A stretch of 64,000 nt of DNA, from the IMG/VR virus record IMGVR_UViG_3300027601_000004; one strand, written 5' to 3'. The position numbers and the translations under genes are program-made. Shown one piece after another: positions 725 through 57,850 of this stretch. Positions within the stretch are counted from its first letter, which is position 1. Every line of letters starts with the position of its first letter. The notes below the pieces were generated by a model. It was not told the DNA's origin. It worked only from the letters and a program-made list of their open reading frames with translations, and made no database searches. Source of the DNA: a virus. Taxonomy: Duplodnaviria > Heunggongvirae > Uroviricota > Caudoviricetes.

Positions 725-1378
725 ATGAAACTTATTAGAGAAGTTACAGAATCCGTTAATGTCATTACTGAGAGCAAACTCGGTAAAGGTAAACAATATT
801 ATATTGAAGGTGTTTTCCTTCAATCAGATTTAACAAACCGTAATAATCGCACTTATCCAGAACAGATTATGGATAAAGAAGTTGCTCGTTATATGGAGCA
901 ATGCGTTAAACAAAATCGTGCATATGGCGAACTAGGTCATCCAGATTCACCATCTATTAATTTAGATCGTGTATCACATTTAATTGTTGACTTACGCAAA
1001 GAAGGTACGAACTATATCGGTAAAGCAAAGATTTTAGAAACTCCAATGGGTCAAATCGCCAGAGGTCTTTTAGATGGTGGTGCAAACTTAGGAGTATCTT
1101 CAAGAGCACTTGGTTCTCTACAAATGAACAAAGAGGGTGTTCAAGTGGTTCAGGATGACTTTATGCTGTCTACTGCAGCAGACATCGTTGCTGACCCATC
1201 CGCTCCAGATGCTTTCGTCCGTGGTATTATGGAAAGCAGAGAGTGGGTATTCGTTGATGGAAAGTTTGTGGAAAAGCAGATTGATGAAGTTAAATCTTTT
1301 ATTAGAAAAACTTCGTCCCGTAATCTAGAGGAAGCCAAGCTACGTGCTTTCCAAGATTTTCTGACTAAAATCAGATAA
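725..1378 (+). CDS. 21: Prohead core protease (T4 gp21 family).
   Basis: YIEGVFLQSDLTNRNNRTYP, GELGHP, GVSSRALGSL and DPSAPDAFV match T4 gp21 blocks; position is upstream of scaffold and MCP. Confidence 0.93.
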   Translation: MKLIREVTESVNVITESKLGKGKQYYIEGVFLQSDLTNRNNRTYPEQIMDKEVARYMEQCVKQNRAYGELGHPDSPSINLDRVSHLIVDLRKEGTNYIGKAKILETPMGQIARGLLDGGANLGVSSRALGSLQMNKEGVQVVQDDFMLSTAADIVADPSAPDAFVRGIMESREWVFVDGKFVEKQIDEVKSFIRKTSSRNLEEAKLRAFQDFLTKIR

Positions 1379-1420: not shown

Positions 1421-2413
1421 ATGTCAATCGAACAAAAAATCGCTGAAATTCTTGCTGAGTCAAAAGCTGCTGCTCTCGAGCAACAAGTTGCTGACAATCA
1501 AGAAACTGTAGTAGAAGAGGAAGTTGAAGCTGTTGCTGAAGAAGCAGTTAAGCCAACTACTCCTCCTGCCAATCCAGACAACGCTAGAAATAACGTTGAT
1601 AAAGAGAAAGCAGCTGAGGGTGGTACTTCAAAGACAAAGAACAAAGTAAACCAAGATGAAGAAGCAGCTGAAGCCAGCCATCTTCCAATCAAAGGTGTAA
1701 AAGAAGATATTGATGCACTTATGAATGGTGAAGAACTCTCTGAAGAGTTCCGTACTAAAGCTACTACCATTTATGAAGCAGCAGTTACTACTCGTGTAAA
1801 AGCAGAAGTAGCTCGCATCGAAGAAGAATACGCTACTAAACTCGAAGAAGAAGTAGCAGAAATTGCAGAGGGTCTTGTTGAAAAGGTTGATGGATATCTC
1901 GACTACGTTGTCGAGCAGTGGATTGCACAGAATGAAATAGCCCTTGAGCATGGTATGAAGTCCGAAATCCTTGAAGGATTTGTTGCTGGACTAAAAGGTC
2001 TTTTCGAAGAACACTATATCGATATTCCAGAAGAGAAGTTCGATGTATTAGGTTCAATGGAAAGTAAAGTTGAAGAACTCGAAGCAAAACTAAACGAGCA
2101 AGTTGCGACTAACGTTGAATTGAATAAAACAATCGGCGAACTAAAGCGTAATGAAATCGTTGAAACTGCATGCGAAGGTTTAACTGATACTGAAGTAGAA
2201 AAACTAAAAGGTTTAGCAGAAGAACTTTCTTATGAAGATTCTGACACTTTTAAAACAAAAGTACAGACTATTCGTGAGAATTATTTCACTACCAAGCAAC
2301 AAGCGGAAGTAACATCCGTGGTAACTGATGAGCCAGTGGAAACTTTGACTGAGGAAAAGAAAATTGATCCTACAATGGCAAAGTATCTATCCGCACTCAA
2401 CTATCGCAAGTAA
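1421..2413 (+). CDS. 22: Prohead scaffolding protein (T4 gp22-like).
   Basis: Highly acidic, Glu-rich, coiled-coil protein lying between the protease and the major capsid gene. Confidence 0.8.
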   Translation: MSIEQKIAEILAESKAAALEQQVADNQETVVEEEVEAVAEEAVKPTTPPANPDNARNNVDKEKAAEGGTSKTKNKVNQDEEAAEASHLPIKGVKEDIDALMNGEELSEEFRTKATTIYEAAVTTRVKAEVARIEEEYATKLEEEVAEIAEGLVEKVDGYLDYVVEQWIAQNEIALEHGMKSEILEGFVAGLKGLFEEHYIDIPEEKFDVLGSMESKVEELEAKLNEQVATNVELNKTIGELKRNEIVETACEGLTDTEVEKLKGLAEELSYEDSDTFKTKVQTIRENYFTTKQQAEVTSVVTDEPVETLTEEKKIDPTMAKYLSALNYRK

Positions 2414-2436: not shown

Positions 2437-3708
2437 ATGAATCGTCAAGATTTACTAAAAAAATGGGCACCGATTCTAGAATCTGAATCTGCTCCAAAAA
2501 TCGCTGACAACTATCGTAAAGAAGTTACAGCAGTTCTATTAGAGAACCAAGAGCGTGAGATGGCTAAGCAATCTGAAGCTCTTTTCGAAGCAGTTCCAGC
2601 TAACGCTGGTGGTACTGGTGTTGCTCTAGGTGGCGCAGGTACTAACGCTAACATGGCAGGCTACGATCCAGTATTGATCGCTTTAGTTCGTCGTGCAGCT
2701 CCACAATTAATCGCTTATGACATCGCTGGCGTTCAGCCAATGACTCAGCCAACTGGTTTGATCTTCGCAATGAAGAGCAAGTATACTAGCCAAGCTGGCG
2801 CAGAAGCATTGTTCAACGAAGCCGATACTGACTTCTCTGGTACAGGTACTCACGCTGGTTCTAACCCAGTTGATGGTACTTACACTACTGGTACTGGTAT
2901 CACTACTGCTAACGCAGAAGATCTAGGTGGCGCAACTGCTTTCAATCAAATGGCTTTCTCAATCGAGAAGACAACTGTAACTGCACAAACTCGTGCTTTG
3001 AAAGCAGAATACACTGTTGAACTTGCACAAGACTTGAAAGCAGTTCATGGTCTTGATGCTGAAGGCGAATTGAGCAACATTCTTTCTTCAGAAATCCAAG
3101 CTGAAATTAACCGTGAAGTTGTACGTACTGTATACGCTGCTGCTAAAGTTGGCGCAGAAGTAAACACTGCAACTGCTGGTACTTTCGACATGGACGTTGA
3201 CTCAAATGGTCGTTGGTCTGTTGAGAAATTCAAAGGTTTGATGTTCCAAATCGAACGTGAAGCCAATGCGATTGCTCAGACTACTCGTCGTGGTCGTGGT
3301 AACTTCATCATCTGCTCAAGCGATGTTGCATCAGCACTAGCAATGGCAGGTGTTCTAGACTATACTCCAGCACTTGCTGGCAACAATGGTCTGAACGTTG
3401 ATGAGTCATCTACTACTTTCGCAGGTGTTCTAAACGGTAAGTACAAAGTGTATGTTGACCCATATTCTGCTAACCAATCAGCAAGCCAGTTCTTCGTTGT
3501 TGGTTACAAGGGTTCTTCAGCATTTGATGCTGGTCTATTCTACTGCCCATACGTTCCATTACAAATGGTTCGTGCAGTTGACCCATCAACTTTCCAACCT
3601 AAGATTGGTTTCAAGACTCGTTACGGTATGGTTGCAAACCCATTCACTAGCTTGTCTTCTGGCACTAACATCTACTACCGTAAGGTAAAAGTAACTAACT
3701 TGATGTAA
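2437..3708 (+). CDS. 23: Major capsid protein (T4 gp23 family).
   Basis: DPVLIALVRRAAPQLIAYDIAGVQPM, ELAQDLKAVHGLDAEGELS, GNFIICSSDVASALA and FQPKIGFKTRYGMVANPF are close matches to T4 gp23. Confidence 0.97.
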   Translation: MNRQDLLKKWAPILESESAPKIADNYRKEVTAVLLENQEREMAKQSEALFEAVPANAGGTGVALGGAGTNANMAGYDPVLIALVRRAAPQLIAYDIAGVQPMTQPTGLIFAMKSKYTSQAGAEALFNEADTDFSGTGTHAGSNPVDGTYTTGTGITTANAEDLGGATAFNQMAFSIEKTTVTAQTRALKAEYTVELAQDLKAVHGLDAEGELSNILSSEIQAEINREVVRTVYAAAKVGAEVNTATAGTFDMDVDSNGRWSVEKFKGLMFQIEREANAIAQTTRRGRGNFIICSSDVASALAMAGVLDYTPALAGNNGLNVDESSTTFAGVLNGKYKVYVDPYSANQSASQFFVVGYKGSSAFDAGLFYCPYVPLQMVRAVDPSTFQPKIGFKTRYGMVANPFTSLSSGTNIYYRKVKVTNLM

Positions 3709-17180: not shown

Positions 17181-17353
17181 TGAAGATCGTTACATCATTC
17201 GCTATTATTTTTGCTATCTTTTATTTTGGCATTCAAGCATTTTGTGCGTTGACTGGTAAACAGAAGTGGCATGTTTCTAAACTTTTATCATACAGTTTAG
17301 TGTGTGCAGTTCTGACTGGTTTATTTTTGGTCGGTATCGTTGTTTTATTTTAA
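17177..17353 (+). CDS. Small two-TM membrane protein (58 aa).
   Basis: ATGA overlap with the upstream stop; two hydrophobic helices. Confidence 0.3.
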   Translation: MMKIVTSFAIIFAIFYFGIQAFCALTGKQKWHVSKLLSYSLVCAVLTGLFLVGIVVLF

Positions 17354-17363
17354 GGAAATTATT

Positions 17364-18155
17364 ATGAAGAAAAGTGTTCTTGCTATTGCCATGCTGGCTG
17401 TTTTTGCCACTGGTTGCACTCGTATTGAAACAGGTGAAGTCGGTGTTCGTGTTGGATTTGACAAGCAAGTCCAGCAAGGAGAGTTGCTTCCTGGATCTTT
17501 TAATCAAGTGTTGATCGGTGATGTTCTTACATTCCCTATCAAAGATGTTAATGTTAAACTTGACGACATGACCCCTGTTGCCAAAGACAACAGCACTATG
17601 AAAGACTTTGATGCTGTGGTTATCTATAACATTAATCAAGCACAAGTTGCTGAACTCTATAGTCAAAAGAGTCAAGCATTCCACGCTAAACACAATGGCG
17701 ATATTTACCTGATGTATAATTACATTGTTCAAACTGCACGTAATGCTATTTACAAAGAAGCACGTAAGTACGAAGCACTGGATATGGCGGACAATCGTCA
17801 AGCAATGGAACAAGCAATCAGAGAGCAGATTCAAAAGAGTCTTGCTGATGAGAAACTTGATGGAAGTCTAATTATCGGACAGGTTCTTATTCGTAACATC
17901 GTTCCTGCTGATTCGGTTGTAGCATCTGCCAATGAATTGGTTCGTGCAAAGAATGAATTCAAACAGAAAGAAGTAGAAGTACAGACTGCTCGTAAAGAAG
18001 CTGAGCGGATGGCTGCTCTTGCAAATAACTCTGCGAGTTCCATTGCGTTTATGAATGCTCAAGCTGCATTGAATATCTCTGAAGGTATTAAGAATGGCAA
18101 GGTTCAGACTATTGTTGTTCCAAGCAATATGACTGGTTTGATGATTGGAAAATAA
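17364..18155 (+). CDS. SPFH/band-7 (prohibitin-like) lipoprotein.
   Basis: Signal peptide with lipobox ATGC; band-7 core; A/E-rich coiled C-terminus; AAGGA RBS. Confidence 0.75.
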   Translation: MKKSVLAIAMLAVFATGCTRIETGEVGVRVGFDKQVQQGELLPGSFNQVLIGDVLTFPIKDVNVKLDDMTPVAKDNSTMKDFDAVVIYNINQAQVAELYSQKSQAFHAKHNGDIYLMYNYIVQTARNAIYKEARKYEALDMADNRQAMEQAIREQIQKSLADEKLDGSLIIGQVLIRNIVPADSVVASANELVRAKNEFKQKEVEVQTARKEAERMAALANNSASSIAFMNAQAALNISEGIKNGKVQTIVVPSNMTGLMIGK

Positions 18156-39155: not shown

Positions 39156-39163
39156 TATAAATA
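39156..39163 (+). promoter_or_regulatory. TATAAATA late-promoter-like box upstream of the His-rich gene array.
   Basis: Exact T4 late-promoter octamer about 115 nt upstream of 39271/39280. Confidence 0.35.
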
Positions 39164-39270: not shown

Positions 39271-40473
39271 ATGGGTAAAATGAAGTCGTTCCAAACATTC
39301 CTTAAAGAAGAAACCGAAGAAGAGAAACTGAAGCACATCCATCATGTAGAGGATCGCCCTCTATTCCATGGTTCTTCAGGGTTCGAACATGCTCTTGGTG
39401 CACTAAACCATGGACATGAACACATTAAAGCTGGGAAACAATCCAGCGATCTGACCATGAAATATGACGGATCGCCATCATTGGTTTTTGGAAAGCATCC
39501 AGAAACTGGAAAATTCTTTGTTGCTTCCAAGTCAGCGTTCAATAAAAACCCAAAAATCAACTATACTGCTAAGGACATTGACAAGAACCATGGTCATGCT
39601 CCAGGTCTCGCAGAAAAATTAAAGCATGCTCTAAAACATCTACCAAAGGTTGCACCTAAGCAAGGTGTATATCAGGGTGACGTTATGCACTCTGAGGGTG
39701 ATGTTAAATATGATGAGAAGAAGGGAACTGCTTCTTATACACCAAATACAATTAAGTATACTGCGCATGGCGATGAAGCCAAGAAAACAGCCCAATCTAA
39801 ATTTGGGTTAGTTGTTCACCAAAAATATGAGGGTAAAGATTTTGCTTCGATGAAAGCAACTCCTCATCCTGATATGAAAAGTTTTGGTCAACACAAAGAT
39901 GTGCATCTTGCTGGTGCCGAGCATGATACTAGCAAAGTTAAATATACTCAAGCAGATCAGAAAAGATTCCAAAGCCACATGAATGCTGCAAAAGATATTC
40001 ATGATAAACACGGCGATAAGATGTATGGTGCGATCCATCCAGAACACAAAGGTGATGCTGGACATTTGGGAACTTACATCAATCAAACAGTTCGCAAAGA
40101 TACAAAACCAAACGCAAAAGGATTCATTAAACATATTCAGGATGTTTATGAAAAGAAAGCGTCTAAACTAAAGTCTGAGAAGGGACAAACTGCTCAGCGT
40201 AATCTTGGTTCTGGTCACGCTGCGCATGTTGAGAAAAATAAAGAGCATTATGAGAATCTATTTAAAATGCATCAGCATTTACAGCAAGGTAAAAACCTTT
40301 TAGTTAAGAATTTAAACCAGCATACTGGCGGTCTTGAGCATCATATTGGAGATAAGAAAACAGATCCTGAGGGATATGTTATAAATTATACGCACAAAGG
40401 TAAACAAGAACCATCTAAAATTGTTAATCGTGCAGAATTCAGTAAAGCCAACTTATTAAAGCCAAGAAAATGA
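39271..40473 (+). CDS. His/Lys-rich paralog 1, with a degenerate nucleotidyltransferase-like motif. The second ATG at 39280 (MKSFQTF) is probably the true start.
   Basis: The N-terminus MKSFQTFLKEE is shared with the next two genes; KYDGSPSL block; 17% His+Lys; low complexity. Confidence 0.6.
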   Translation: MGKMKSFQTFLKEETEEEKLKHIHHVEDRPLFHGSSGFEHALGALNHGHEHIKAGKQSSDLTMKYDGSPSLVFGKHPETGKFFVASKSAFNKNPKINYTAKDIDKNHGHAPGLAEKLKHALKHLPKVAPKQGVYQGDVMHSEGDVKYDEKKGTASYTPNTIKYTAHGDEAKKTAQSKFGLVVHQKYEGKDFASMKATPHPDMKSFGQHKDVHLAGAEHDTSKVKYTQADQKRFQSHMNAAKDIHDKHGDKMYGAIHPEHKGDAGHLGTYINQTVRKDTKPNAKGFIKHIQDVYEKKASKLKSEKGQTAQRNLGSGHAAHVEKNKEHYENLFKMHQHLQQGKNLLVKNLNQHTGGLEHHIGDKKTDPEGYVINYTHKGKQEPSKIVNRAEFSKANLLKPRK

Positions 40474-41084
40474 AGACATTTAAATCTTATATTGTAGAAT
40501 CAGAAAAAGACGTTCATCATGTTCTTGCTTTTGGTCGAATGAATCCTCCAACTGCTGGTCATGAGAAACTCGTAACCCATATGCATGATACTGCCAAGAA
40601 ACATAATGCAGAACATACATTGGTATTATCAGGTTCGCATGCAACTAAAGACGGATCTAATCCATTACCACCTGATGTTAAAAAGAAACATGCAGAGAGA
40701 GCATTTCCTGGAACCAATGTTAAGGTAGCTGATAAAGAACATCCTACTGTTCTTCATCATGCTGCTGAGTTGCACAAAAAAGGTGTTACTCATTTACACT
40801 TTGCTGGTGGCGATGATCGTAAACCAATGCATGAATTGATTAAAAAGTATAATGGAAAAGAAGGTCCACATGGACATTACAATTTCAAGAGTATAAAGTT
40901 CCACAATGCAGGTAAACGTGATCCAAATGCAAAAGGAACTGAAGGTATTTCTGGAACTAAACTTCGTGGTCACGCTGCAGCTGGTGAACAGAAAAAGTTT
41001 GAATCTCATCTATCGTCACAGATGAAACCAGAACATAAAACAGAATTGTATCACGACTTACGTAAACATATGGGTGTAAAGTAA
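40470..41084 (+). CDS. His/Lys-rich paralog 2; HIGH-signature nucleotidyltransferase-like (cytidylyl-/adenylyltransferase superfamily).
   Basis: VLAFGRMNPPTAGHEKLV is a (T/H)xGH motif preceded by FGR.NP; a C-terminal ISGTKLRG resembles the ISxTxxR motif of NMNAT/PPAT-type enzymes. Confidence 0.55.
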   Translation: MKTFKSYIVESEKDVHHVLAFGRMNPPTAGHEKLVTHMHDTAKKHNAEHTLVLSGSHATKDGSNPLPPDVKKKHAERAFPGTNVKVADKEHPTVLHHAAELHKKGVTHLHFAGGDDRKPMHELIKKYNGKEGPHGHYNFKSIKFHNAGKRDPNAKGTEGISGTKLRGHAAAGEQKKFESHLSSQMKPEHKTELYHDLRKHMGVK

Positions 41085-42130
41085 TGAAAAATTTTAAATC
41101 GTTCTTAGCAGAAGAACAATACTACGAAGAATTGCTTATCGAAGCAGCTGATGATGCTTCCAAAGAGGGTGGTGTTTCCAATAACACTAAAGGTGTGTTG
41201 CACGAACTATTAGTCGGCAAACATTTAAATGGTGGTAAGCATCTAGAGAAACACAAGAATGAAAACGATGAAACACCTGAGCAAGCACACGAGAGATTAA
41301 AGAAACAAATTCACCCTAAAGATTATGATAAGATCGCTAAAAATGCAGAGAGTGCTGCCAATCATATTAAGGCACATATCGATTCTACTCACAAAGGGCA
41401 TAAGATTTCAGCAGTGCATTGGACTTCAAAACCTGGAGATACAGAAAAGGTAACTGGTCACAAAGCAACACAGAAAGAAGATTCTTCTGACGTTTATGTA
41501 ACTACCAAGCATCCAAAGACAGGTAAAGAACATCATCATGGCGTAAGTTTAAAAGTCAGCGATAAGTCCAGTAAAAACATTCCGTCTTCAAGTCTTGGTA
41601 TGGAATCTGGTGGTTCAAAAGCCAGACAGCATTATAAAGATCATCAAGACGCAATACTTGCTGCTCATCCTAAATTAAAAGGTAAGAATAAAGACCAGCG
41701 TAAAGAAATTGCAAAAGCAGATCCTAAGTTGCATGATGATATTAAGAAACGCAACAAAGAACTTTTACATAAAGTTGCTCACGATCATGCTGCTGAGTTG
41801 CAGCACCACTTAGACAACAATAACCACGACCATGTAGTTAAACATATTCGTGAAGTTCTACATGCACATAAGACTCCTGCAGAAGAAAAGGGGCACAGTT
41901 TTATTAAGCATACAACATATCAAACTGCTAAGGGTGTTCAACACCATACAAGTAAGCCAAGCGAAGACCACGAACATATCCTTAAAGACCATAAGAATAT
42001 TACAGTTAAATCCAGTGGTGGCTCTGTTCACTTCTATCACAATGGTAAGAAGTTTGCTTCTCAAGCCCATAAGTTCGACTCTCAATCTGATCCATTAAGT
42101 TCATTAAAGAGTGCAGGTAAAGCTGTATGA
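41084..42130 (+). CDS. His/Lys-rich paralog 3; degenerate motif (NNTKGVLHELLV).
   Basis: N-terminus MKNFKSFLAEE; very His-rich (HHHG, HDHAAELQHHLDNNNHDHVVKH). Confidence 0.55.
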   Translation: MKNFKSFLAEEQYYEELLIEAADDASKEGGVSNNTKGVLHELLVGKHLNGGKHLEKHKNENDETPEQAHERLKKQIHPKDYDKIAKNAESAANHIKAHIDSTHKGHKISAVHWTSKPGDTEKVTGHKATQKEDSSDVYVTTKHPKTGKEHHHGVSLKVSDKSSKNIPSSSLGMESGGSKARQHYKDHQDAILAAHPKLKGKNKDQRKEIAKADPKLHDDIKKRNKELLHKVAHDHAAELQHHLDNNNHDHVVKHIREVLHAHKTPAEEKGHSFIKHTTYQTAKGVQHHTSKPSEDHEHILKDHKNITVKSSGGSVHFYHNGKKFASQAHKFDSQSDPLSSLKSAGKAV

Positions 42131-42474
42131 AAAAGTTAATACTGATTCTTGCCGTAGTTTCTTTATCTGCATGTTCTGTTATCCTACCAAGACCACACGA
42201 CCCAGAAATGTTTGGTCGTTTAGTTGATACCAAAATAGCAGTTGATAAATTAGAATGTGGTAATCAGTTAATGTTCCAAAACGCAGACGAGTATATCGAG
42301 AGATTAAAAGTTTATGCTGTTTTAAGATCTGACCCACAAGCAGAAGCTATTGGAAAATTGCAAGAAGCTATCAAGAAAGCAGGAGAATCCAAGAACAAAG
42401 TATTCTGCGAATCTGTTGTTAAAACAAATAAAGTTAGAATCGATGTAATAGTAGATGCTTGGAAAGGAAGATAA
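42127..42474 (+). CDS. Lipoprotein (115 aa).
   Basis: Signal peptide with lipobox LSAC. Confidence 0.5.
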   Translation: MKKLILILAVVSLSACSVILPRPHDPEMFGRLVDTKIAVDKLECGNQLMFQNADEYIERLKVYAVLRSDPQAEAIGKLQEAIKKAGESKNKVFCESVVKTNKVRIDVIVDAWKGR

Positions 42475-42929: not shown

Positions 42930-44810
42930 ATGAAAGATTACAGACAACTAATCAAAGAACTACCGTCCAGTACTATTGTTTGTGCAGTTAGCGAGTTTAA
43001 CCCTCCTACAATCGGTCACGAACTACTAGTCAAGACAGTCAAAAAACTGGCAGAACAAAAAAATTCTGACCACGTAATCTATACATCCCCATCTAAGAAC
43101 AGTATTATCCAAGAAGATAAGAAAGAACATTATCTAAATTTAATGTTCCCAAATACTTCTTTTAAAAGTATCACATCTTTATCGGAAACGATTAAAGATT
43201 TGTCGCAGAAGTATAAACATGTTGTATTGGTTGTCGGCAGCGAACAATCAGCCAGCTTGAAAAAAATTGTTAAAGAATCAAGTTCCATTCAGATTATTTC
43301 TACTTTAGATAAAGACCCAGATGTAAATTCTTCAAAGATGAAATCTTTTGCTACTAAAGGAATTTTTGAAGAGTTTAAGAAAAAGTTGCCAAGTTCTGTT
43401 CGTGAGTTAGATGGTCGTCGTTTGATGAACGATGTCCGTATTACGATGGGTTTAGAACCAATTAAAGAGCAGCTTAATTTGGTCAAAGATACTGTACGTG
43501 AACAATATTTCCGTGGTGAAATTTTTAATGTCGGAGATATCGTTGAATGTAGTGGAGAAAAATTAGCAGTAGTTAAACGTGGCTCAAACCATTTACTACT
43601 TAAAGAAGCTAGTGGCAAATTAGTTTCTAAATGGATACAAGACGTAATACCAACGGAAGAAAAAGAAATGAACGAAGACTTAACAGATAAGACTTTAAAA
43701 ACCAACGATAAGATTAAAGTTGCTCGAGTAATCGCAACTATGCTTGGTGTGGATAAAGTTGAGGCAACTGCAAACGCTGAGTTGCTTGTTAATACTGCAC
43801 TACGCAGAATCAAATCCAAGACTTTGAATCCAGAAGCATTGAACATTGTTAATAAGATGTTACAACTGGCTAACCAAGTTGGTATTCAATATGACACAAA
43901 TTTAATTCCACAGAAACTTACTCAAGAAGAAACTTCTTTGGATGAAGCAACTCCATATTATAATAAACCTTCTTTCATCAAGAGAATGTCTCGCATGGCG
44001 AAACAAGAAAGACAGGAACGTGAGAAAAAAGAAAAAGAACAGAAGAAAGATGTAAAAGAGAATCACTGCAAACCTGGACATAGTTTAGTTGAACCAGGAG
44101 CATCTGAAACTTTACGCAAACAAAAAATTAAACAACAATTGGGTGAAGTAGCTCCAGTTGATGTGAGCAAAGTTAATCATGCTGGCGATGAACCACATGA
44201 TGAAGAATGGGAAGATACTGGTATTTGTCCAGTACACAACGTAAAGCATGGCGAAGAAGGATGTGAACACACTAGAGATGTGTTAGAAAAAGAATTAGAT
44301 CTTACTGATGAAGAAATCGATCACATTATTAATACTACACCAGATGATGAATTCATCGATGAGTATGAAGATGATGAGTTTGGTATTATCGATCCAGATA
44401 CTGGCGAAGAATATGACGATGAAGAATGTGCTTGCACAATGCAAGAGCAAGCAATTCTGGAAGTTCTTTCAAGAACAGAACGTATGCGTGCAAGAGTTCG
44501 TTTTGCAAAATCTAAGGCTAAGCGTGAACGTAAAGCATCCATCGCATTAAGAACTCGTGCCACCACTAAGACTACAAACAAACGTGCACGTCGTCTTGCA
44601 ATTAAGTTAATGAAGAAACGTCTACTCCGTGGTCGTGACTATAACAAACTTTCAGTTGGAGAGAAAGAGCGTGTAGAAAGAGTTATTCAAAGACGCAAAC
44701 AAGTTATCGGTCGTGTAGCAATGAAACTTGTTCCACGTATTCGTGCTGTTGAGAAAGCAAGATTATCACATACAAAATATACTAAAGGATCTGGAAATGT
44801 TGCGTTTTAA
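42930..44810 (+). CDS. Large paralog 4: N-terminal HIGH-signature nucleotidyltransferase-like domain, an acidic middle region, and a strongly basic Arg/Lys C-terminus.
   Basis: VSEFNPPTIGHELLV in the same architecture as paralog 2; the C-terminal 150 aa is about 35% R/K; a CTAAATA sequence lies 35 nt upstream. Confidence 0.55.
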   Translation: MKDYRQLIKELPSSTIVCAVSEFNPPTIGHELLVKTVKKLAEQKNSDHVIYTSPSKNSIIQEDKKEHYLNLMFPNTSFKSITSLSETIKDLSQKYKHVVLVVGSEQSASLKKIVKESSSIQIISTLDKDPDVNSSKMKSFATKGIFEEFKKKLPSSVRELDGRRLMNDVRITMGLEPIKEQLNLVKDTVREQYFRGEIFNVGDIVECSGEKLAVVKRGSNHLLLKEASGKLVSKWIQDVIPTEEKEMNEDLTDKTLKTNDKIKVARVIATMLGVDKVEATANAELLVNTALRRIKSKTLNPEALNIVNKMLQLANQVGIQYDTNLIPQKLTQEETSLDEATPYYNKPSFIKRMSRMAKQERQEREKKEKEQKKDVKENHCKPGHSLVEPGASETLRKQKIKQQLGEVAPVDVSKVNHAGDEPHDEEWEDTGICPVHNVKHGEEGCEHTRDVLEKELDLTDEEIDHIINTTPDDEFIDEYEDDEFGIIDPDTGEEYDDEECACTMQEQAILEVLSRTERMRARVRFAKSKAKRERKASIALRTRATTKTTNKRARRLAIKLMKKRLLRGRDYNKLSVGEKERVERVIQRRKQVIGRVAMKLVPRIRAVEKARLSHTKYTKGSGNVAF

Positions 44811-45294
44811 AGATTACCTTACAGAAGATAATGCCAAACATGATGAGGCAGAAGAGCATTTATCAAAAGCCAATGACGCTGAATCTAAAGGTGATATGAA
44901 GTCATTTCATGCACACATGGCGGATCATCATGATGCTATGTCCGAGTGGCATGAGTCGAAGGGTCGTTCGGCATCAGCAGACAAGCATGCTGAAAAGGCA
45001 GATGAACACCATGAAAAATCTTTAACTGTTAAAGAAGCAGCTGTTGATGCAAAAGGATTTAAATCTTCAACTGGTGGCTTGACACAAAAGGGTCGAGATC
45101 ATTATAACAGAACAGAGGGTGGCAATCTTAAAGCACCTGTAACAACACCACCATCAAAATTAAAAGCTGGTAGCAAAGCTGCCAATCGTCGCAAGTCTTT
45201 CTGTGCCAGAATGTCTGGCGTAGAAGGACCAATGAAGAAGCCAAATGGCGAGCCAACTCGTAAAGCATTGGCATTAAGAAAATGGAATTGTTAA
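44797..45294 (+). CDS. His-rich basic protein (165 aa).
   Basis: ATG with an AAAGGA RBS in the +1 frame at the end of the previous gene; HAHMADHHDAMSEWHE. Confidence 0.45.
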   Translation: MLRFKDYLTEDNAKHDEAEEHLSKANDAESKGDMKSFHAHMADHHDAMSEWHESKGRSASADKHAEKADEHHEKSLTVKEAAVDAKGFKSSTGGLTQKGRDHYNRTEGGNLKAPVTTPPSKLKAGSKAANRRKSFCARMSGVEGPMKKPNGEPTRKALALRKWNC

Positions 45295-45295
45295 T

Positions 45296-45742
45296 ATGAA
45301 TGAAACTTTAGTTACTGCGAAAATTTGCTTAGCAAATACATTCTTAATGTATTTTAAGGCACAATCTTATCATTGGAACTTGGAAGGGATGTTCTTTCCA
45401 CAGTATCATGAATTTTTTGGCAATCTTTATGAAGAAATTTATGGAGCAGTTGATCCAATGGCAGAAGAGATGCGTGCGCTTGATGAGTATGCTCCAAAGA
45501 ATATAGAAGAAATGTATAAAGTTACAACTATCGATAATGATAATAACGCTAGTAATGTAACTGAAATGCTGCAAGATTTACAAGAAGCCAACAATAAAAC
45601 CATCGAGAGCCTAAATAAACTGTTCGATCTATTATCGAAAGACAAAGAGCAGGGTTTTGCTGATTTTATTGCTGGAAGATTGGATGCTCACAAGAAACAT
45701 GGTTGGATGATACGTTCCAGCTTAAAGAAAATTGGAGAATAA
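45296..45742 (+). CDS. dps: Dps / ferritin-like protein.
   Basis: FLMYFKAQSYHWNLEGMFFPQYHEFFGNLYEEIYGAVDPMAEEMRAL carries the Dps ferroxidase-site spacing (HW..G..F..H.......E....D...E); the C-terminal HKKHGWMIRS is typical. Confidence 0.65.
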   Translation: MNETLVTAKICLANTFLMYFKAQSYHWNLEGMFFPQYHEFFGNLYEEIYGAVDPMAEEMRALDEYAPKNIEEMYKVTTIDNDNNASNVTEMLQDLQEANNKTIESLNKLFDLLSKDKEQGFADFIAGRLDAHKKHGWMIRSSLKKIGE

Positions 45743-45745
45743 TAA

Positions 45746-48175
45746 ATGGCAAAAAAGAAATTTGCAGATTTAGCCAGTGCTTGCTGGAAAGGCTATAAAG
45801 CAGTTGGTTTAAAGGATAAGAATGGAAGAAAAGTTCCTAACTGTGTTCCTGAAGAAACAGAAGTAGCTGACGATATTATCGAAGCTAGAGTGTTTGCAAC
45901 TTATCAAGATGCGAAAGCTGCTGCAGCACCTGGACAAAAACCTAAGTTGAACCCATCAAATAACAAGTATATTTTAGTTTCTGAAGAAACTATTGACGAA
46001 GAAGATGATTACTCTAGACGTCATACTGTAGTTGCTCATGTTTCTGATAATACTGGAACTCCTGCTGATGGTGAGAAGCGTGAAGTTATAAAGAAAGCAC
46101 TATCTATATTGGCAGCAACTCCAAAGCATGCAGAGCGTGCTGCAAGAAAACATTTCTCTGACAAAGGATATAAAGTTCATAAAATCTCAGCGAAATTAAA
46201 AGAAGAAGTTGAGTTAGAAGAAGCCACAGTAAGCAAGAAAGATTATTCTTGGGGTAAGATGATGACTGTTCATCACGGCAAAGATATTTCTTATCCTCTA
46301 CATCCAGAACACCAAAAGATTGTTAAGGGTTTACGACCAAGTGGTGAACATTCGAAGGCTATGTATAAAGATGAAACTGGTAATCAAGTTCATGTAACAC
46401 GTGAAGATGACAAAGTTCATTTTGTTTCTCACAGAACATCAGGCAGTAAGAAAACTACTGTTGATTACAAACACTTTGATGAATCAGTTCCAGCAAAGAA
46501 CACTGACATTGCCGATAAGAGTTATTTAAAAGATATGGGTAAGAAACCATCTATCAAATCAGATTTGAAAAACTTTAAGAACTTCTTGACAGGTAAGAAA
46601 GAAACCAACGAAGAAGTTGAAATAGAAGAAGCTAGTCAAACTTGGAATCATGCTAAGGTCAAAAAGAATACAGTTCACGGTACATATCATTCATCTTCAA
46701 TGGATGTTTATGGTAATATGACTGCGCATAAAAAAGGTTTCAAAACTTCTAAAGAAGCTGACGATCACGGAAAGAGTATTACTGGTAAACGCACTAAAGC
46801 GTATCATCCTGGAGAAAGAACTCGTGCAGTTTATGTTGATGAGTCAGTTGAACAAGTGGTGGAAGCAGCACCATTCAAAACTAAAGAAGATGCTGTGAAG
46901 TATGCTAAAGAAAAAGTTAAAACCCATCGTGACAATCTTGATGGTATTGAGATTTATGCTCATAGTGGTGGCTTTGATGTTAACCACACTATGAACGCTA
47001 GTGGTCGCAACTCTCTACAAAAGATTAAAGCAAAACATATTGGAACTATCTACAAAGAAGAAGTTGAAATGGAAGAAGGTTACTACCAAAAGCCAGCATC
47101 TGCTTATCGTCGTAAAGGTGACGAGATTGGTGGTGGTTCTTCTAAGAATAGTGTTCCATTTGATGGTCCATATACAAAGACTAAACCTGTTAAAAACTCA
47201 GATGGCACTACTCAATCACCAATGAGTCGTGCACGTGAACTTGCTAAACAAGCTATTGCTGCAAAGAGTAAAATCAAAGAAGACGTTGTTGATGAACAAG
47301 CTCCAGTTGCTCCAGTTCCAGATAAGAAGTATATCAAAGGAACACCTGAGAATAAAGCATACAAAGCAACTAAGAAACCAATCAATGGTCATCCAACTAA
47401 TAAGGTGTCCTGCGAAGAAGTTGAACAGATCGATGAATTAGATCAGAAAACTTTAAAGTCATATGTTAGAAAGAATTTAAAGTCTGGCGATACTAGTGAT
47501 AAAAGAGATGCGGGGTTGTACACGGCAACCAATAAGATTGCCAAAAAACAAGCAACATCAACTCTCGATAAAAAAGTTAAAACCCTTGGTCAGACAAGAC
47601 CTAGTGAAGTGAAAAACCGATATGAATATGAAGCATCTCGTTCTGAATTGAAGAACAGAGGTATTCATCATTTCGCAGGTCGCAGAACTAGAACTGAAGA
47701 AGTCGAACAAGTTGACGAGAAAGCACCTCCAGGATTTGAGGGTACTGTTAAAGCAATGAAGAAGCATAAAGAAATTGATAATCCTTTTGCTCTTGCATGG
47801 TATATGAAGAATAAGGGTATGAAGAGTCATAAAGAAGAAGTGGAACAATTTGACGATAACGGAGAGGTAATAACTAACATGAAAACATATAAAGAGTTTG
47901 TAGAATCTCTTGATGAGGTTAAAATGGCTGACTTACCAGTACGTAAAGTGAGTGGTCGTGGTTATGGTACTGAGTATTATAAGGGTGAAGCCGAAGCAGA
48001 CAAAAAAGGTTACGACGATGAAGACAAGCCAGCTAAACCAGCTGCAGAGAAACGTGGTCGTGGTCGTCCAGCAGGTTCTACATCTGGCGCACGTCAGAAG
48101 GGAACTATTGCTAAGAGAAAAGGTAGTGGTGTCGAAATGACAGGCTATCCAGTACACTTGCCTAATTTCAAATAA
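45746..48175 (+). CDS. Lysine-rich 809-aa protein with six periodic EEVExEE/EEVEQxDE motifs and a C-terminal AT-hook (KRGRGRPAGS).
   Basis: Long ORF with an AATAAATGG RBS; 18% Lys; repeats at about aa 150, 290, 435, 555, 650 and 695. Confidence 0.6.
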   Translation: MAKKKFADLASACWKGYKAVGLKDKNGRKVPNCVPEETEVADDIIEARVFATYQDAKAAAAPGQKPKLNPSNNKYILVSEETIDEEDDYSRRHTVVAHVSDNTGTPADGEKREVIKKALSILAATPKHAERAARKHFSDKGYKVHKISAKLKEEVELEEATVSKKDYSWGKMMTVHHGKDISYPLHPEHQKIVKGLRPSGEHSKAMYKDETGNQVHVTREDDKVHFVSHRTSGSKKTTVDYKHFDESVPAKNTDIADKSYLKDMGKKPSIKSDLKNFKNFLTGKKETNEEVEIEEASQTWNHAKVKKNTVHGTYHSSSMDVYGNMTAHKKGFKTSKEADDHGKSITGKRTKAYHPGERTRAVYVDESVEQVVEAAPFKTKEDAVKYAKEKVKTHRDNLDGIEIYAHSGGFDVNHTMNASGRNSLQKIKAKHIGTIYKEEVEMEEGYYQKPASAYRRKGDEIGGGSSKNSVPFDGPYTKTKPVKNSDGTTQSPMSRARELAKQAIAAKSKIKEDVVDEQAPVAPVPDKKYIKGTPENKAYKATKKPINGHPTNKVSCEEVEQIDELDQKTLKSYVRKNLKSGDTSDKRDAGLYTATNKIAKKQATSTLDKKVKTLGQTRPSEVKNRYEYEASRSELKNRGIHHFAGRRTRTEEVEQVDEKAPPGFEGTVKAMKKHKEIDNPFALAWYMKNKGMKSHKEEVEQFDDNGEVITNMKTYKEFVESLDEVKMADLPVRKVSGRGYGTEYYKGEAEADKKGYDDEDKPAKPAAEKRGRGRPAGSTSGARQKGTIAKRKGSGVEMTGYPVHLPNFK

Positions 48176-48185
48176 GGAGAATAAA

Positions 48186-48455
48186 ATGGCACTATGGGGA
48201 AAAACAGACGCAGCTGGCAGCAAGCCACAATATCTAAACACTGCTGGTAAAGCAGCTGTTGAGGGTATCTCTGCAGCAGAAGCAGCAGTCGCAGCAAACA
48301 AGGCTAAAGGTGTTGCTCATGCAGGCTGGGTAACAACTAATACATACACTGATGCACAAGGTGTAACACGCAACAAGACTGAAGTTCTAGTTGCTATGTC
48401 ATCAATCACTGGTGATGACAACACTGATGATACAACTATCGGTGCTGATGCCTAA
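48186..48455 (+). CDS. Small Ala/Thr-rich protein (89 aa), probably highly expressed.
   Basis: Strong AAGGAG RBS and a strong terminator immediately downstream. Confidence 0.5.
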   Translation: MALWGKTDAAGSKPQYLNTAGKAAVEGISAAEAAVAANKAKGVAHAGWVTTNTYTDAQGVTRNKTEVLVAMSSITGDDNTDDTTIGADA

Positions 48456-48469
48456 TAAATAAATTGGTT

Positions 48470-48494
48470 GAGGGGAGATTCCTCCCCTCCTTTT
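48470..48494 (+). terminator. Rho-independent terminator.
   Basis: GAGGGGAG-ATTC-CTCCCCTC followed by CTTTT. Confidence 0.8.
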
Positions 48495-56289: not shown

Positions 56290-56714
56290 TGTGGCATTAT
56301 CAAAACAAAACAGTAGAATCATTACCTGAGGATTGTGTTGGGTTCGTTTATTTGATCACAAATAAAACCAACGATAGAAAATACATAGGTAAGAAGTTAG
56401 CAAAATTTTCCAAGACAACTTACAAAACAGTTAAGTTGAAAAATGGAACAAAAAAGAAAAAGAAGATTCGAGGTAAGATTGAATCTGATTGGCTAACTTA
56501 CTATGGTTCTAGCATTGAATTAAATAAAGACGTTGAGAGATTGGGTGAGGAGTCATTCACACGAGAAATTTTGTACTACTGCAAATCAAAAGCAGAGTGT
56601 TCATACATCGAAGCACGAGAGCAGTTTTTAAGGAAAGTATTAGAAACAGAAGAATATTACAACGGACAAATCTCTGTTAGAGTCCACAAATCACACATAC
56701 TACACAAACTATGA
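56289..56714 (+). CDS. Free-standing GIY-YIG homing-endonuclease-like protein (Seg-like).
   Basis: GFVYLITNKTNDRKYIGKK (GIY-YIG core); no nested host gene. Confidence 0.6.
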   Translation: MWHYQNKTVESLPEDCVGFVYLITNKTNDRKYIGKKLAKFSKTTYKTVKLKNGTKKKKKIRGKIESDWLTYYGSSIELNKDVERLGEESFTREILYYCKSKAECSYIEAREQFLRKVLETEEYYNGQISVRVHKSHILHKL

Positions 56715-57850
56715 AATACCTATTATTCATAACAGCATTGGCATTATCAGCTTGCGCAGCTTACTACTCAATTATGGGTCTGGTGGCAATTTTCGCAGCA
56801 GCTGTTATTCCTATTTTAATTATGGGTTCGTTGCTAGAAGCATCGAAACTTGTAGTAGCATCATGGCTTTATCGAACTTGGAAAGAAATTCCAGTGTTGA
56901 TGAAGACATACTTTACATTCGCTTTGGTTGTATTGATGCTATTAACTTCTATGGGAATTTTTGGTTACCTAAGTAAAGCACACTTGGACCAAGCAATCCC
57001 ATCAGGTGATGTGCAAGCAAAACTTGCACTAATAGATGAAAAAATTAAAACAGAAAAGGAAAACATAAATGCAAATCGTAAAGAACTTTCTCAACTCGAT
57101 TCTCAAGTTGATCAAACCATCGCCAGAACCACAGAAGCCAGCGGAGCAGAGCGAGCCATCTCCATCCGTAGAAACCAGCAAAAAGACAGAGCCAGAATCC
57201 TCCAAGAAATCGGCACCTCGCAAACCAAGATCGCAAAACTCAACGAAGAGCGTGCGCCAATCGCCAGCGAAGTCCGTAAAGTCGAAGCCGAAGTCGGTCC
57301 AATAAAATACATAGCAGCATTACTTTACGGTGATAATCCAGAAACGGATTTGCTTGAGAAAGCAGTCCGCTGGGTTATTATCATGATTGTTATTGTATTT
57401 GATCCACTTGCAGTTCTAATGCTAGTTGCTGCCAACTGGCAAATGCGAAAAGATGAGAGTGTAAAGTCAGTAGTAATTAAAACTGATTCAGAAGGTAATG
57501 ATGTAATTCAGTCTATAGTTCTTAAAGATAATGATGAATTAGAACCCGAACCAGATAAACCTAAGTGGTCAGATATGTTCTTTAAAAAGAGTCCATTGCC
57601 AATGGAATCTAAGAAGATTATCGAAGATTTCTTTGGTAAAAAGAAACCTGAAGAACTAGAGCCAGAACAAATGGCTGAGATGAATAAAGAAGTAGATGTT
57701 ATTATTCCAGAAACTACTCCAAAAGTAGAAGAGTATGGAACTTTTGGACAACGTGAAAAACGTATAACATTAGAATCTAATGTTGAGACAACTGATAATA
57801 TTTCTATACAACTTCCACCAGAAAAACCACCGAGAATGCCATTAAGATAA
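56711..57850 (+). CDS. Polytopic membrane protein with a central coiled coil and acidic C-terminus.
   Basis: N-terminal 3-4 TM helices, an internal TM after the coiled coil, EPEP-rich C-terminal part. Confidence 0.5.
   Translation: MKYLLFITALALSACAAYYSIMGLVAIFAAAVIPILIMGSLLEASKLVVASWLYRTWKEIPVLMKTYFTFALVVLMLLTSMGIFGYLSKAHLDQAIPSGDVQAKLALIDEKIKTEKENINANRKELSQLDSQVDQTIARTTEASGAERAISIRRNQQKDRARILQEIGTSQTKIAKLNEERAPIASEVRKVEAEVGPIKYIAALLYGDNPETDLLEKAVRWVIIMIVIVFDPLAVLMLVAANWQMRKDESVKSVVIKTDSEGNDVIQSIVLKDNDELEPEPDKPKWSDMFFKKSPLPMESKKIIEDFFGKKKPEELEPEQMAEMNKEVDVIIPETTPKVEEYGTFGQREKRITLESNVETTDNISIQLPPEKPPRMPLR

Follow-up and report, generated by a model that had tools for sequence, protein, structure and literature searches.

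The dps gene and its product

The DNA analysed here, referred to as the window, is a stretch of 64,000 nucleotides from the IMG/VR virus record IMGVR_UViG_3300027601_000004; it belongs to a marine T4-like myovirus, all of its long open reading frames (ORFs) lie on the + strand and its GC content is ~37%. At 45296..45742 (+) it carries a gene for a Dps protein (mini-ferritin), which is the subject of this report and which stands behind a block of genes whose products begin with peptides resembling the capsid-targeting sequence (CTS) of T4 internal head proteins. The dps gene starts with ATG and encodes 148 amino acids with an isoelectric point (pI) of 4.9; an earlier reading of the sequence (the original prediction) had placed the ORF at exactly these coordinates. 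It begins 1 nt past the upstream stop codon, and the next ATG is found 3 nt beyond its end.

All of the motifs quoted in the original prediction are present in the translation (H26-W27-N-L-E-G-M-F, H38-E-F-F, E46-E-I-Y, D53-P-M-A-E57-E and H132-K-K-H-G-W-M-I-R-S). The proposed membership of the Dps family was confirmed with Pfam, in which PF00210 (Ferritin) matched residues 12-146 with E=8e-20 and 71.6 bits (gathering cut-off 24.5). PHROG 3636 ('DNA binding protein') matched at 3e-27, and 46 distinct Dps sequences in the PDB matched at E<=0.01, far beyond chance. The top match of solved structure was Pseudomonas aeruginosa Dps (PDB entry 8ff9; E=1e-20, residues 11-143), followed by Bacillus subtilis MrgA and Thermosynechococcus Dps.

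An AlphaFold model of the monomer, calculated with 46 homologs as input (predicted local-distance difference test score, pLDDT, 94.7; predicted template-modelling score, pTM, 0.89), contains helices at residues 3-28, 34-61, 70-76, 88-115 and 119-143, and the four-helix ferritin fold on which the original prediction had made the assignment depend was obtained as a four-helix bundle plus a B-C helix. This added B-C helix is the mark that distinguishes Dps. In a Foldseek comparison with the PDB all 50 of the 50 matches listed were Dps subunits, with template-modelling (TM) scores of 0.81-0.93 and root-mean-square deviations (rmsd) of 1.2-2.4 Å. With 8ff9 (P. aeruginosa PA0962) the product shares length and fold (TM 0.91, rmsd 1.3 Å) at ~30% identity; B. 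subtilis MrgA (2chp), Thermosynechococcus Dps (2c41), Bacillus anthracis Dlp-2 (1jig) and Listeria Dps were also compared. Judged by sequence and model, the product is a genuine Dps of a phage-only lineage.

Members of the Dps family form a hollow shell of 12 subunits, in which Fe(II) is oxidised at two-subunit sites, preferentially with H2O2, and a ferric core is stored; this storage removes both ingredients of the Fenton reaction. A twelve-subunit hollow shell would likewise be expected for the window Dps, because the Dps fold is predicted and the ferroxidase site needs a two-fold dimer.

Ferroxidase centre and surface charge

The inter-subunit ferroxidase site of Dps is made up of two His residues of one subunit and an Asp and a Glu of the partner, with an adjacent conserved Trp that traps radicals. 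In the window the codons of this centre fall within 45371..45466 (+) and were assigned by alignment to E. coli and Listeria Dps, the numbering of which agrees with the literature, and by conservation over 271 homologous domains. H26 (45371-73), W27 (45374-76), H38 (45407-09), D53 (45452-54) and E57 (45464-66) align with H51, W52, H63, D78 and E82 of the E. coli protein and with H31, W32, H43, D58 and E62 of the Listeria protein, so that the metal ligands, which the original prediction had read from their spacing, are identical to those of established Dps sites in the alignment. The bacterial Dps proteins used for comparison have the same His, Trp, His, Asp and Glu residues, and the five positions are near-universal over the 271 domains, every fusion described below included.

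A fifth canonical acidic residue, four positions after the second His (E. coli D67, Listeria D47), is replaced by Gly42 (45419-21) in the window Dps. Gly occupies this position in 119 of 120 close relatives and at 70 of 80 T4-like viral loci, whereas the nearest chromosomal Dps proteins have Glu (54/77) or, in Leptospira, Met (19/77). Since Leptospira Dps manages with Met, position 42 is not indispensable, and by sequence comparison Gly42 is derived in the phage clade, at a site that is not strictly essential, a variant that does not exclude the protein from the Dps family. The same substitution is an argument for supposing that the fold has been kept while the shell has been repurposed, for counter-defence, a structural role or another metal, and no longer acts as an iron ferroxidase. 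Anti-restriction is the typical task of T4 internal proteins (PMC3012670), and the His-rich partners of the window Dps hint at other metals. We nevertheless regard such a change of function as improbable, because the essential invariance of the four metal ligands and the adjacent Trp would be hard to explain without catalysis, and because Leptospira Dps also lacks an acidic residue at position 42. From the predicted Dps fold and the essentially invariant ligands it is concluded with high confidence that the window Dps would be catalytically competent, as a ferroxidase and iron store of the Dps type.

The subunit is acidic (pI 4.91, net charge -9). Its N-terminus, MNETLVTAKI, has one Lys in the first ten residues, and a Lys-rich or otherwise flexible basic tail is absent. 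Listeria Dps and Dlp are acidic and tail-less in the same way, and acidic Dps proteins without a tail, that of Listeria for example, do not bind DNA. The statement in the original prediction that Dps proteins condense DNA can therefore not be transferred to the window Dps, which by itself probably does not bind DNA. A nucleoid protein that condenses host DNA, or the phage genome in the head, in the manner of E. coli Dps is accordingly the least probable of the functions considered here. It is encouraged by the names 'DNA binding protein' (PHROG 3636) and 'starvation-inducible DNA-binding protein' in public databases and by the Lys-rich C-terminal extensions of some relatives, for example P0135 and P0139; however, the 'DNA-binding' names from PHROGs and the Joint Genome Institute (JGI) are labels transferred automatically, and at this locus positive charge sits on the neighbouring proteins instead of on Dps.

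Putative capsid-targeting sequences upstream of dps

The T4 internal proteins IPII and IPIII, translated from NC_000866, begin with MKTYQEFIAE. The CTS of IPIII consists of the first ten residues, of which residues 4 and 7 mainly serve targeting and residues 8 and 10 processing; the prohead protease gp21 cuts after Glu in L/I-x-E, and a CTS can load a head with 20-200 copies of a foreign protein and deliver these into the host (PMC9026906). ATG-initiated candidates from the six reading frames of the window were scanned with the pattern M-x-x-[FYW]-x-x-h-h-x-E. The pattern occurred in five of 563 candidates, and all five are gene starts at 39.3-44.8 kb, upstream of dps: MKSFQTFLKE (39280), MKTFKSYIVE (40470), MKNFKSFLAE (41084), MKDYRQLIKE (42930) and MLRFKDYLTE (44797). 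Positions 4, 7, 8 and 10 of the T4 CTS are exactly those conserved in the five neighbours, and gp21 and gp22 are encoded in the window as well.

The first of these genes (39271..40473, +) encodes a DUF6267 protein with 9.1% His, in which the CTS-like peptide is read from the second Met (39280). As the DUF6267 domain begins only at residue 18 of the 39271 product, the peptide appears to be an add-on before the domain. It is followed by genes for a cytidylyltransferase-like protein of 204 amino acids with 11.8% His (40470..41084, +), a 348-residue protein with 11.5% His (41084..42130, +), a 626-residue protein in which a cytidylyltransferase-like domain at the N-terminus is followed by a long charged tail (42930..44810, +) and, directly upstream of dps, a basic protein of 165 residues counted from its ATG (44797..45294, +), in which a His-rich linker (6.7% His in the product) joins the CTS-like N-terminus to a C-terminal DUF6321 domain (1.6e-25).

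Related loci were taken as the best 80 of 465 IMG/VR stretches that encode Dps relatives. They gave 196 CTS matches in 10,545 candidates where ~7 would be expected from a rough estimate based on residue frequencies; all 196 were on the strand of dps and 170 lay within 9 kb upstream of it. The 185 distinct carriers range from 76 to 1,148 amino acids, and without the peptide 85% of them have a pI above 8. Positions left free by the pattern are kept too, position 2 as K, L or I in 91% and position 5 as K or R in 79% of the carriers. At the Dps-carrying loci at least 6% His was found in 28% of the CTS proteins versus 2.7% of the other ORFs, which suggests, at the level of composition, a metal-binding cargo that travels together with Dps. 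The His contents of 9.1, 11.8, 11.5 and 6.7% in the window compare with ~1% in the homologs from S-PM2, HTVC008M and Melnitz.

Hundreds of marine T4-like phages in culture possess homologs of the neighbouring genes, which there too occupy the slot between gp41 and gp61. The CTS was expected to be common to these cultured relatives, but it is missing in S-PM2, ambiguous in HTVC008M and present on one or two genes of the Methylophilales phage Melnitz. Because it is absent from S-PM2 and present on some Melnitz genes, it has apparently been gained or lost on homologous proteins. The slot itself is variable among these three phages; in each (L172, S-PM2; L173, HTVC008M; L174, Melnitz) it holds DUF6267 and cytidylyltransferase-like genes and no dps, and in S-PM2 it includes an annotated 'virion structural protein', S-PM2d145. 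A CTS in marine T4-like phages was not found described in the searchable literature. Going by its distribution, the CTS-like peptide looks like a general rule for spotting head-internal proteins in this marine T4-like clade.

The processing machinery that such peptides would need is encoded at the beginning of the window. A gp21-type prohead protease (725..1378, +; phrog_207 at 2e-75) has a C-terminal region with EKQIDE and, by analogy with T4, is expected to cut after Glu in L/I-x-E. It is followed by a gp22-type scaffold (core) protein containing EEEVEAVAEE and LEEEVAEIAE (1421..2413, +) and by a major head protein of the gp23 type, which has its L-F-E|A site at residue 51 (2437..3708, +). 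Sites fitting L/I-x-E are thus carried by all three proteins; the density of the motif by itself does not discriminate, because the motif is too short.

Fusions of the Dps domain

Among 270 retrieved homologs, 57 have at least 200 residues; their Dps domain is N-terminal, central or C-terminal, and PHROG 3636 matches every one of these 57. In P0240 a HAD/PNK-like domain and the Dps domain are joined to a Peptidase_S78 prohead protease (8e-43), and in P0239 a prohead protease (phrog_9427, 1e-48) precedes DUF6321 (1e-29), DUF5872 and Dps. Five proteins, P0256 among them, contain a portal/minor-head region (phrog_859, down to 1e-98). Three match phrog_9737, as does the N-terminus of the 809-residue downstream neighbour of the window Dps, and six (P0139, P0146, P0148, P0150, P0151 and P0141) carry KEEVEQ(I/M)DE repeats as that neighbour does. 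Fifteen fusions were verified as uninterrupted ORFs on IMG/VR DNA, namely three of portal/minor-head and Dps (1,664-1,740 amino acids), eight of Dps and protease and four of protease, DUF6321 and Dps. As far as these sequences tell, the Dps domain is elsewhere covalently joined to prohead-internal proteins and to relatives of both neighbours in the window.

The metagenomic protein P0121 (777 amino acids) contains two entire Dps domains one after the other, each with its metal ligands, and then a tail of 430 residues; such a covalent dimer would pre-form the two-fold ferroxidase interface. In being encoded only in phages, and often as a domain within proteins of 250-1,760 residues, the clade is unlike cellular Dps, for which we know of no case of a domain of such large proteins. 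The idea that the fusions might supply a CTS was dropped, as the strict pattern was found at the N-terminus of none of the 57 and only loose resemblances occurred, such as MAKTLKDFVE and MTKSFKQLIE.

Downstream gene, gene spacing and candidate transcription signals

The gene downstream of dps (45746..48175, +) encodes a protein of 809 amino acids that starts MAKKK, has a pI of 9.3 and contains 118 Lys residues (14.6%). It has six EEVE-x-h-x-E repeats where 0.11 would be expected (p<5e-5), an N-terminal two-Cys motif, CWKGY...VPNC (phrog_9737), and one AT-hook-like motif, GRGRP, near the C-terminus. The repeats resemble sequences of gp22 and of the C-terminal region of gp21 and fit the L/I-x-E motif; consistent with this, the protein may be a polyprotein that is cleaved into basic fragments. 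The description of dps in the original prediction as lying between a His-rich array and a polylysine AT-hook protein stands for the His-rich part (9-12% His in the products of 39280-42130), whereas 'polylysine' overstates a Lys content of 14.6% and a single GRGRP.

The gap between the upstream stop codon and the dps ATG is 0-3 nt in 46 of 74 loci, and in the window dps is packed within 1-3 nt of both neighbours, which suggests translational coupling. A +1 frameshift that would join the DUF6321 ORF to dps (+1 frame, 1-nt spacer) was considered and set aside: no slippery motif was evident and the dps ATG is conserved. On contigs of 160-235 kb the order of the neighbourhood is constant, with DUF6267, a protein of 600-750 amino acids, DUF6321, Dps, a protein of 600-800 amino acids, DUF7207, primase and ThyX.

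In the intergenic gap before the block a box matching the consensus of T4-type late promoters, TATAAATA, was found at 39156..39163 (+); the other exact copy in the 64 kb lies 35 nt before the tail-tube gene. Its core ATAAATA occurs eight times (1375, 1382, 3779, 20458, 37369, 39157, 48455 and 51685), always on the + strand, versus ~20 expected over both strands, and most copies stand just upstream of genes, including gp22, the tail-tube gene, the CTS block and thyX. Such depletion and placement form the pattern expected of a functional T4-type late promoter. A terminator-like hairpin with a T-run (48470..48484, +) follows just past the last gene of the block (48186-48455). Terminator-like sites are not enriched in the window (ten found, 7.1 expected), nor are σ70 promoter matches (39 found, 40.6 expected), and early promoters could for the latter reason not be called. 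We infer from these signals a late transcription unit from ~39.2 to 48.5 kb (~9 kb) that would include dps.

Some further genes of the block deserve mention. The two cytidylyltransferase-like domains (40470-41084 and 42930-43700) carry the nucleotidyltransferase motifs TAGH and TIGH, each behind a CTS-like N-terminus, and hundreds of cyanophages hold homologs named 'cytitidyltransferase'. A product of 115 amino acids encoded inside the CTS block (42127-42474) starts MKKLILILAVVSLSAC, a lipoprotein signal peptide with lipobox, and gave no match to a PHROGs family. The 89-residue product of 48186-48455 starts MALWGKTDAAGSKPQYL and matches phrog_613 ('head protein'); its N-terminus resembles an 'S-layer domain protein' of HTVC008M (MGLWGATDADESKPKNL) and a 'putative S-layer protein' of Melnitz (MALWGITDADEAKPKWL).

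Distribution of the clade and known phage Dps

A word-indexed search returned 342 homologous proteins, the best 120 of which are 59-91% identical to the window Dps, and an exhaustive search of cluster representatives returned 3,387 at E<=0.001. In IMG/VR 465 stretches encode relatives, the best 80 being 49-92% identical. Identical Dps sequences are present on 21 public contigs, the longest of 166 kb. Among 185,579 reference genomes, on the other hand, only three matches of at least 40% identity were obtained, all on 3-21-kb contigs of metagenome-assembled genomes (MAGs), and true chromosomal Dps proteins reached at most 38%. A cellular origin based on these three close matches was rejected, as two of the contigs carry CTS genes. 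These two, L092 (JBBARF010000078.1, 'Bacteriovoracaceae MAG', 17 kb) and L093 (CAYWLC010000041.1, 'Luteolibacter MAG', 21 kb), have a phage-clade dps right after CTS genes (MLRFKDYLTE, MKKYRQLIKE and MKQYRQFLKE) and, because of this arrangement, are almost certainly fragments of T4-like phages that were mis-binned into MAGs. Assignment of a host from the nearest cellular Dps proteins (Maricaulales, Leptospira and Micavibrio, at most 38% identity) proved uninformative.

The phage has no close cultured relative, as a megablast of 5 kb around dps against 50,697 GenBank phages gave zero matches. Besides the head genes above and a tail-tube gene, the window encodes the replication proteins UvsW, gp46, a gp47-like protein, gp45, gp44, ligase, gp43, UvsX, gp41 and gp61, together with CobS, NrdA and NrdB; its polymerase shares 54-57% identity with the polymerases of marine single-cell-associated viruses and cyanomyoviruses. 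No tRNA genes were found in the 64 kb. An SPFH/Band 7 domain protein (1e-17) is encoded at 17340-18155, and the protein of 56711-57850 gave a tetraspanin-like match below threshold (28 bits versus a cut-off of 32.1); membrane-organising proteins would be unusual for a T4-like replication region.

Phage Dps proteins are in themselves already known, and the window Dps has been named as such by JGI pipelines. With tblastn, dps genes were located in 31 GenBank phage records, all below 60% identity and those listed at 23-33%, with hosts or names comprising Proteus, Cronobacter, Aeromonas, Salmonella, Clostridium tetani, Bacteroides and Synechococcus S-SRM01. Annotated examples are PHROG 3636 itself, Proteus phage Privateer, Cronobacter phage vB_CsaP_009, the Aeromonas LAh phages, Salmonella phage pSal-SNUABM-01, Synechococcus phage S-SRM01, C. 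tetani phages, myoviruses of Lactobacillus plantarum and the gut 'Gratiaviridae'; Benler et al. reported Dps in the 'Gratiaviridae' and 36 other phage genomes and cited seven Lactobacillus phages (PMC8008677). These genes belong to modules for replication or nucleotide metabolism or to accessory islands, not to a CTS block: in Privateer dps lies between the genes for thioredoxin and ribonucleotide reductase (RNR), in the Lactobacillus phages among DNA-metabolism genes and in S-SRM01 within an accessory island. Neither head-protein fusions nor packaging are mentioned in the reports, and a paper on pelagimyophage genomics mentions neither Dps nor ferritin. One paper retrieved with 'Dps' and 'prohead protease' was set aside, the 'DPs' there being decoration proteins. 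What is new here, in that they were not found described, are the gene context and the domain architectures of this phage-only clade with its altered site residue.

The known cases favour a view in which Dps is an auxiliary protein of the cytoplasm only: it would stay in the infected cell, sequester Fe(II) and consume H2O2, protect phage DNA during replication and packaging and manage iron for the di-iron RNR subunit NrdB, its position being an accident of a hypervariable slot. In the literature that was reached, every phage Dps discussed is proposed to protect from oxidative stress (PMC8008677, PMC6669764). The position of dps in Privateer fits, and in the window NrdA and NrdB are encoded 6.6 kb downstream of dps; the lack of a CTS on Dps at 80 of 80 loci, the acidity of the protein and the variability of the gp41-gp61 slot point in the same direction. 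On the other side, the repeated fusions to prohead protease, portal/minor-head protein, DUF6321 and the repeat protein are left unexplained, as are the conserved position at near-zero spacing after CTS genes and the apparent late-promoter context, and the RNR-linked phage Dps proteins are only 23-33% identical and belong to a different lineage. A purely cytoplasmic role is a real possibility, to which we give less credence than to the one set out below.

Role of Dps in the phage

The original prediction had offered two functions, metal handling, which might be relevant in iron-limited seawater, and protection or compaction of DNA inside the host or the capsid, as unranked guesses. The capsid option receives genuine though indirect support from the CTS array upstream and the fusions to head proteins; direct compaction is unlikely. 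Our preferred reading, to which we assign an even chance, is that an iron-oxidising mini-ferritin is made with, and possibly packaged among, head-internal neighbours that bear a CTS. Dps would be transcribed late from the TATAAATA box at 39156 as part of the ~9-kb unit, the other products of which would carry the T4-type propeptide M-[KL]-x-[FY]-[KR]-x-[FYL]-[LI]-x-E| and be head-internal proteins, basic and often rich in His, that gp21 processes. By binding the CTS-DUF6321 protein and the Lys-rich protein with EEVEQxDE repeats, Dps could enter the assembling head or act there. Once in the head it would keep iron and peroxide off the packaged genome, and it might bring iron or ferroxidase activity to the next cell. 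The stronger form of this proposal, that Dps is true capsid cargo both here and in the phages with protease and portal fusions and becomes part of the head along with His-rich CTS proteins, is tentative and in our opinion doubtful. Association with the capsid is backed indirectly, through gene order and domain architecture: the fixed position after CTS genes, the gaps of 0-3 nt, the likely late operon and the fusions.

Several observations weigh against this reading. A CTS of its own would be the simplest route of Dps into the head, yet the Dps ORF carries one at none of the 80 related loci, and none of the 57 fusion proteins begins with the strict pattern. The ORF immediately upstream has the strict pattern at only 28 of 74 loci, the block also holds genes without a CTS, and in S-PM2 the neighbouring genes have homologs without the peptide. 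The function of the CTS in this lineage is inferred by analogy to T4. Exact copies of TATAAATA number two where 4.3 would be expected by chance, and both promoter and terminator were called solely by matching a consensus. More distant phage Dps lineages adjoin genes of nucleotide metabolism (thioredoxin and RNR in Privateer, DNA metabolism in Lactobacillus phages). The window Dps is acidic, unlike the basic internal proteins of T4; its second iron site may be weakened by Gly42; and a dodecamer of 9 nm could not pass through the tail.

The closest parallel is provided by IPI, IPII, IPIII and Alt of T4, which are targeted by a CTS, processed by gp21 and ejected as head cargo. The window shares with T4 the gp21, gp22 and gp23 homologs and five adjacent CTS-like genes for a cargo that is hypervariable, basic and clustered. 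Unlike the T4 internal proteins, the window Dps is acidic and has no CTS, and for these reasons it could at most be an indirect passenger of the head. The cargo proposed here would moreover include enzyme-like (cytidylyltransferase-like and DUF6267) and His-rich proteins that T4 lacks. A second parallel, by analogy only, is with the encapsulins, in which an HK97-fold shell surrounds a ferroxidase of the ferritin superfamily (EncFtn/Flp or IMEF) brought in by a targeting element or by fusion. The iron is thereby kept away from the cytoplasm (background: PMC6668986, PMC11202242 and PMC8346489). In contrast, an infectious capsid filled with DNA would here form the shell, Dps and not EncFtn or IMEF would be the cargo, and loading would depend on partners with an N-terminal CTS or on fusion to protease or portal, where encapsulin cargo uses a C-terminal cargo-loading peptide.

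A large phage-only lineage of Dps, present on hundreds of viral contigs, at a fixed site in marine T4-like genomes is unusual. So are the place of dps at the end of a CTS array and the repeated joining of its domain to prohead-internal proteins, whereas a phage dps by itself is commonplace. Independently of Dps, the CTS array provides a sequence rule that would predict head-internal and probably injected proteins of uncultured marine myoviruses; the cytidylyltransferase-like products, if packaged, would place enzymes of nucleotidyltransferase fold in the head cargo. If the proposal for Dps is true, the virion would be a natural counterpart of the iron-storing encapsulin, carrying protein-bound iron, or a scavenger of iron and peroxide, that guards the genome and may reach the next host. 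With Dps packaged, virions would contain a protein devoted to iron handling. This would matter for the survival of phage DNA under oxidative damage, for the evolutionary relationship of phage capsids to iron-storing encapsulins and for the amount of iron in marine viruses, where it would give the 'Ferrojan Horse' discussion a concrete molecular route for iron in virus particles.

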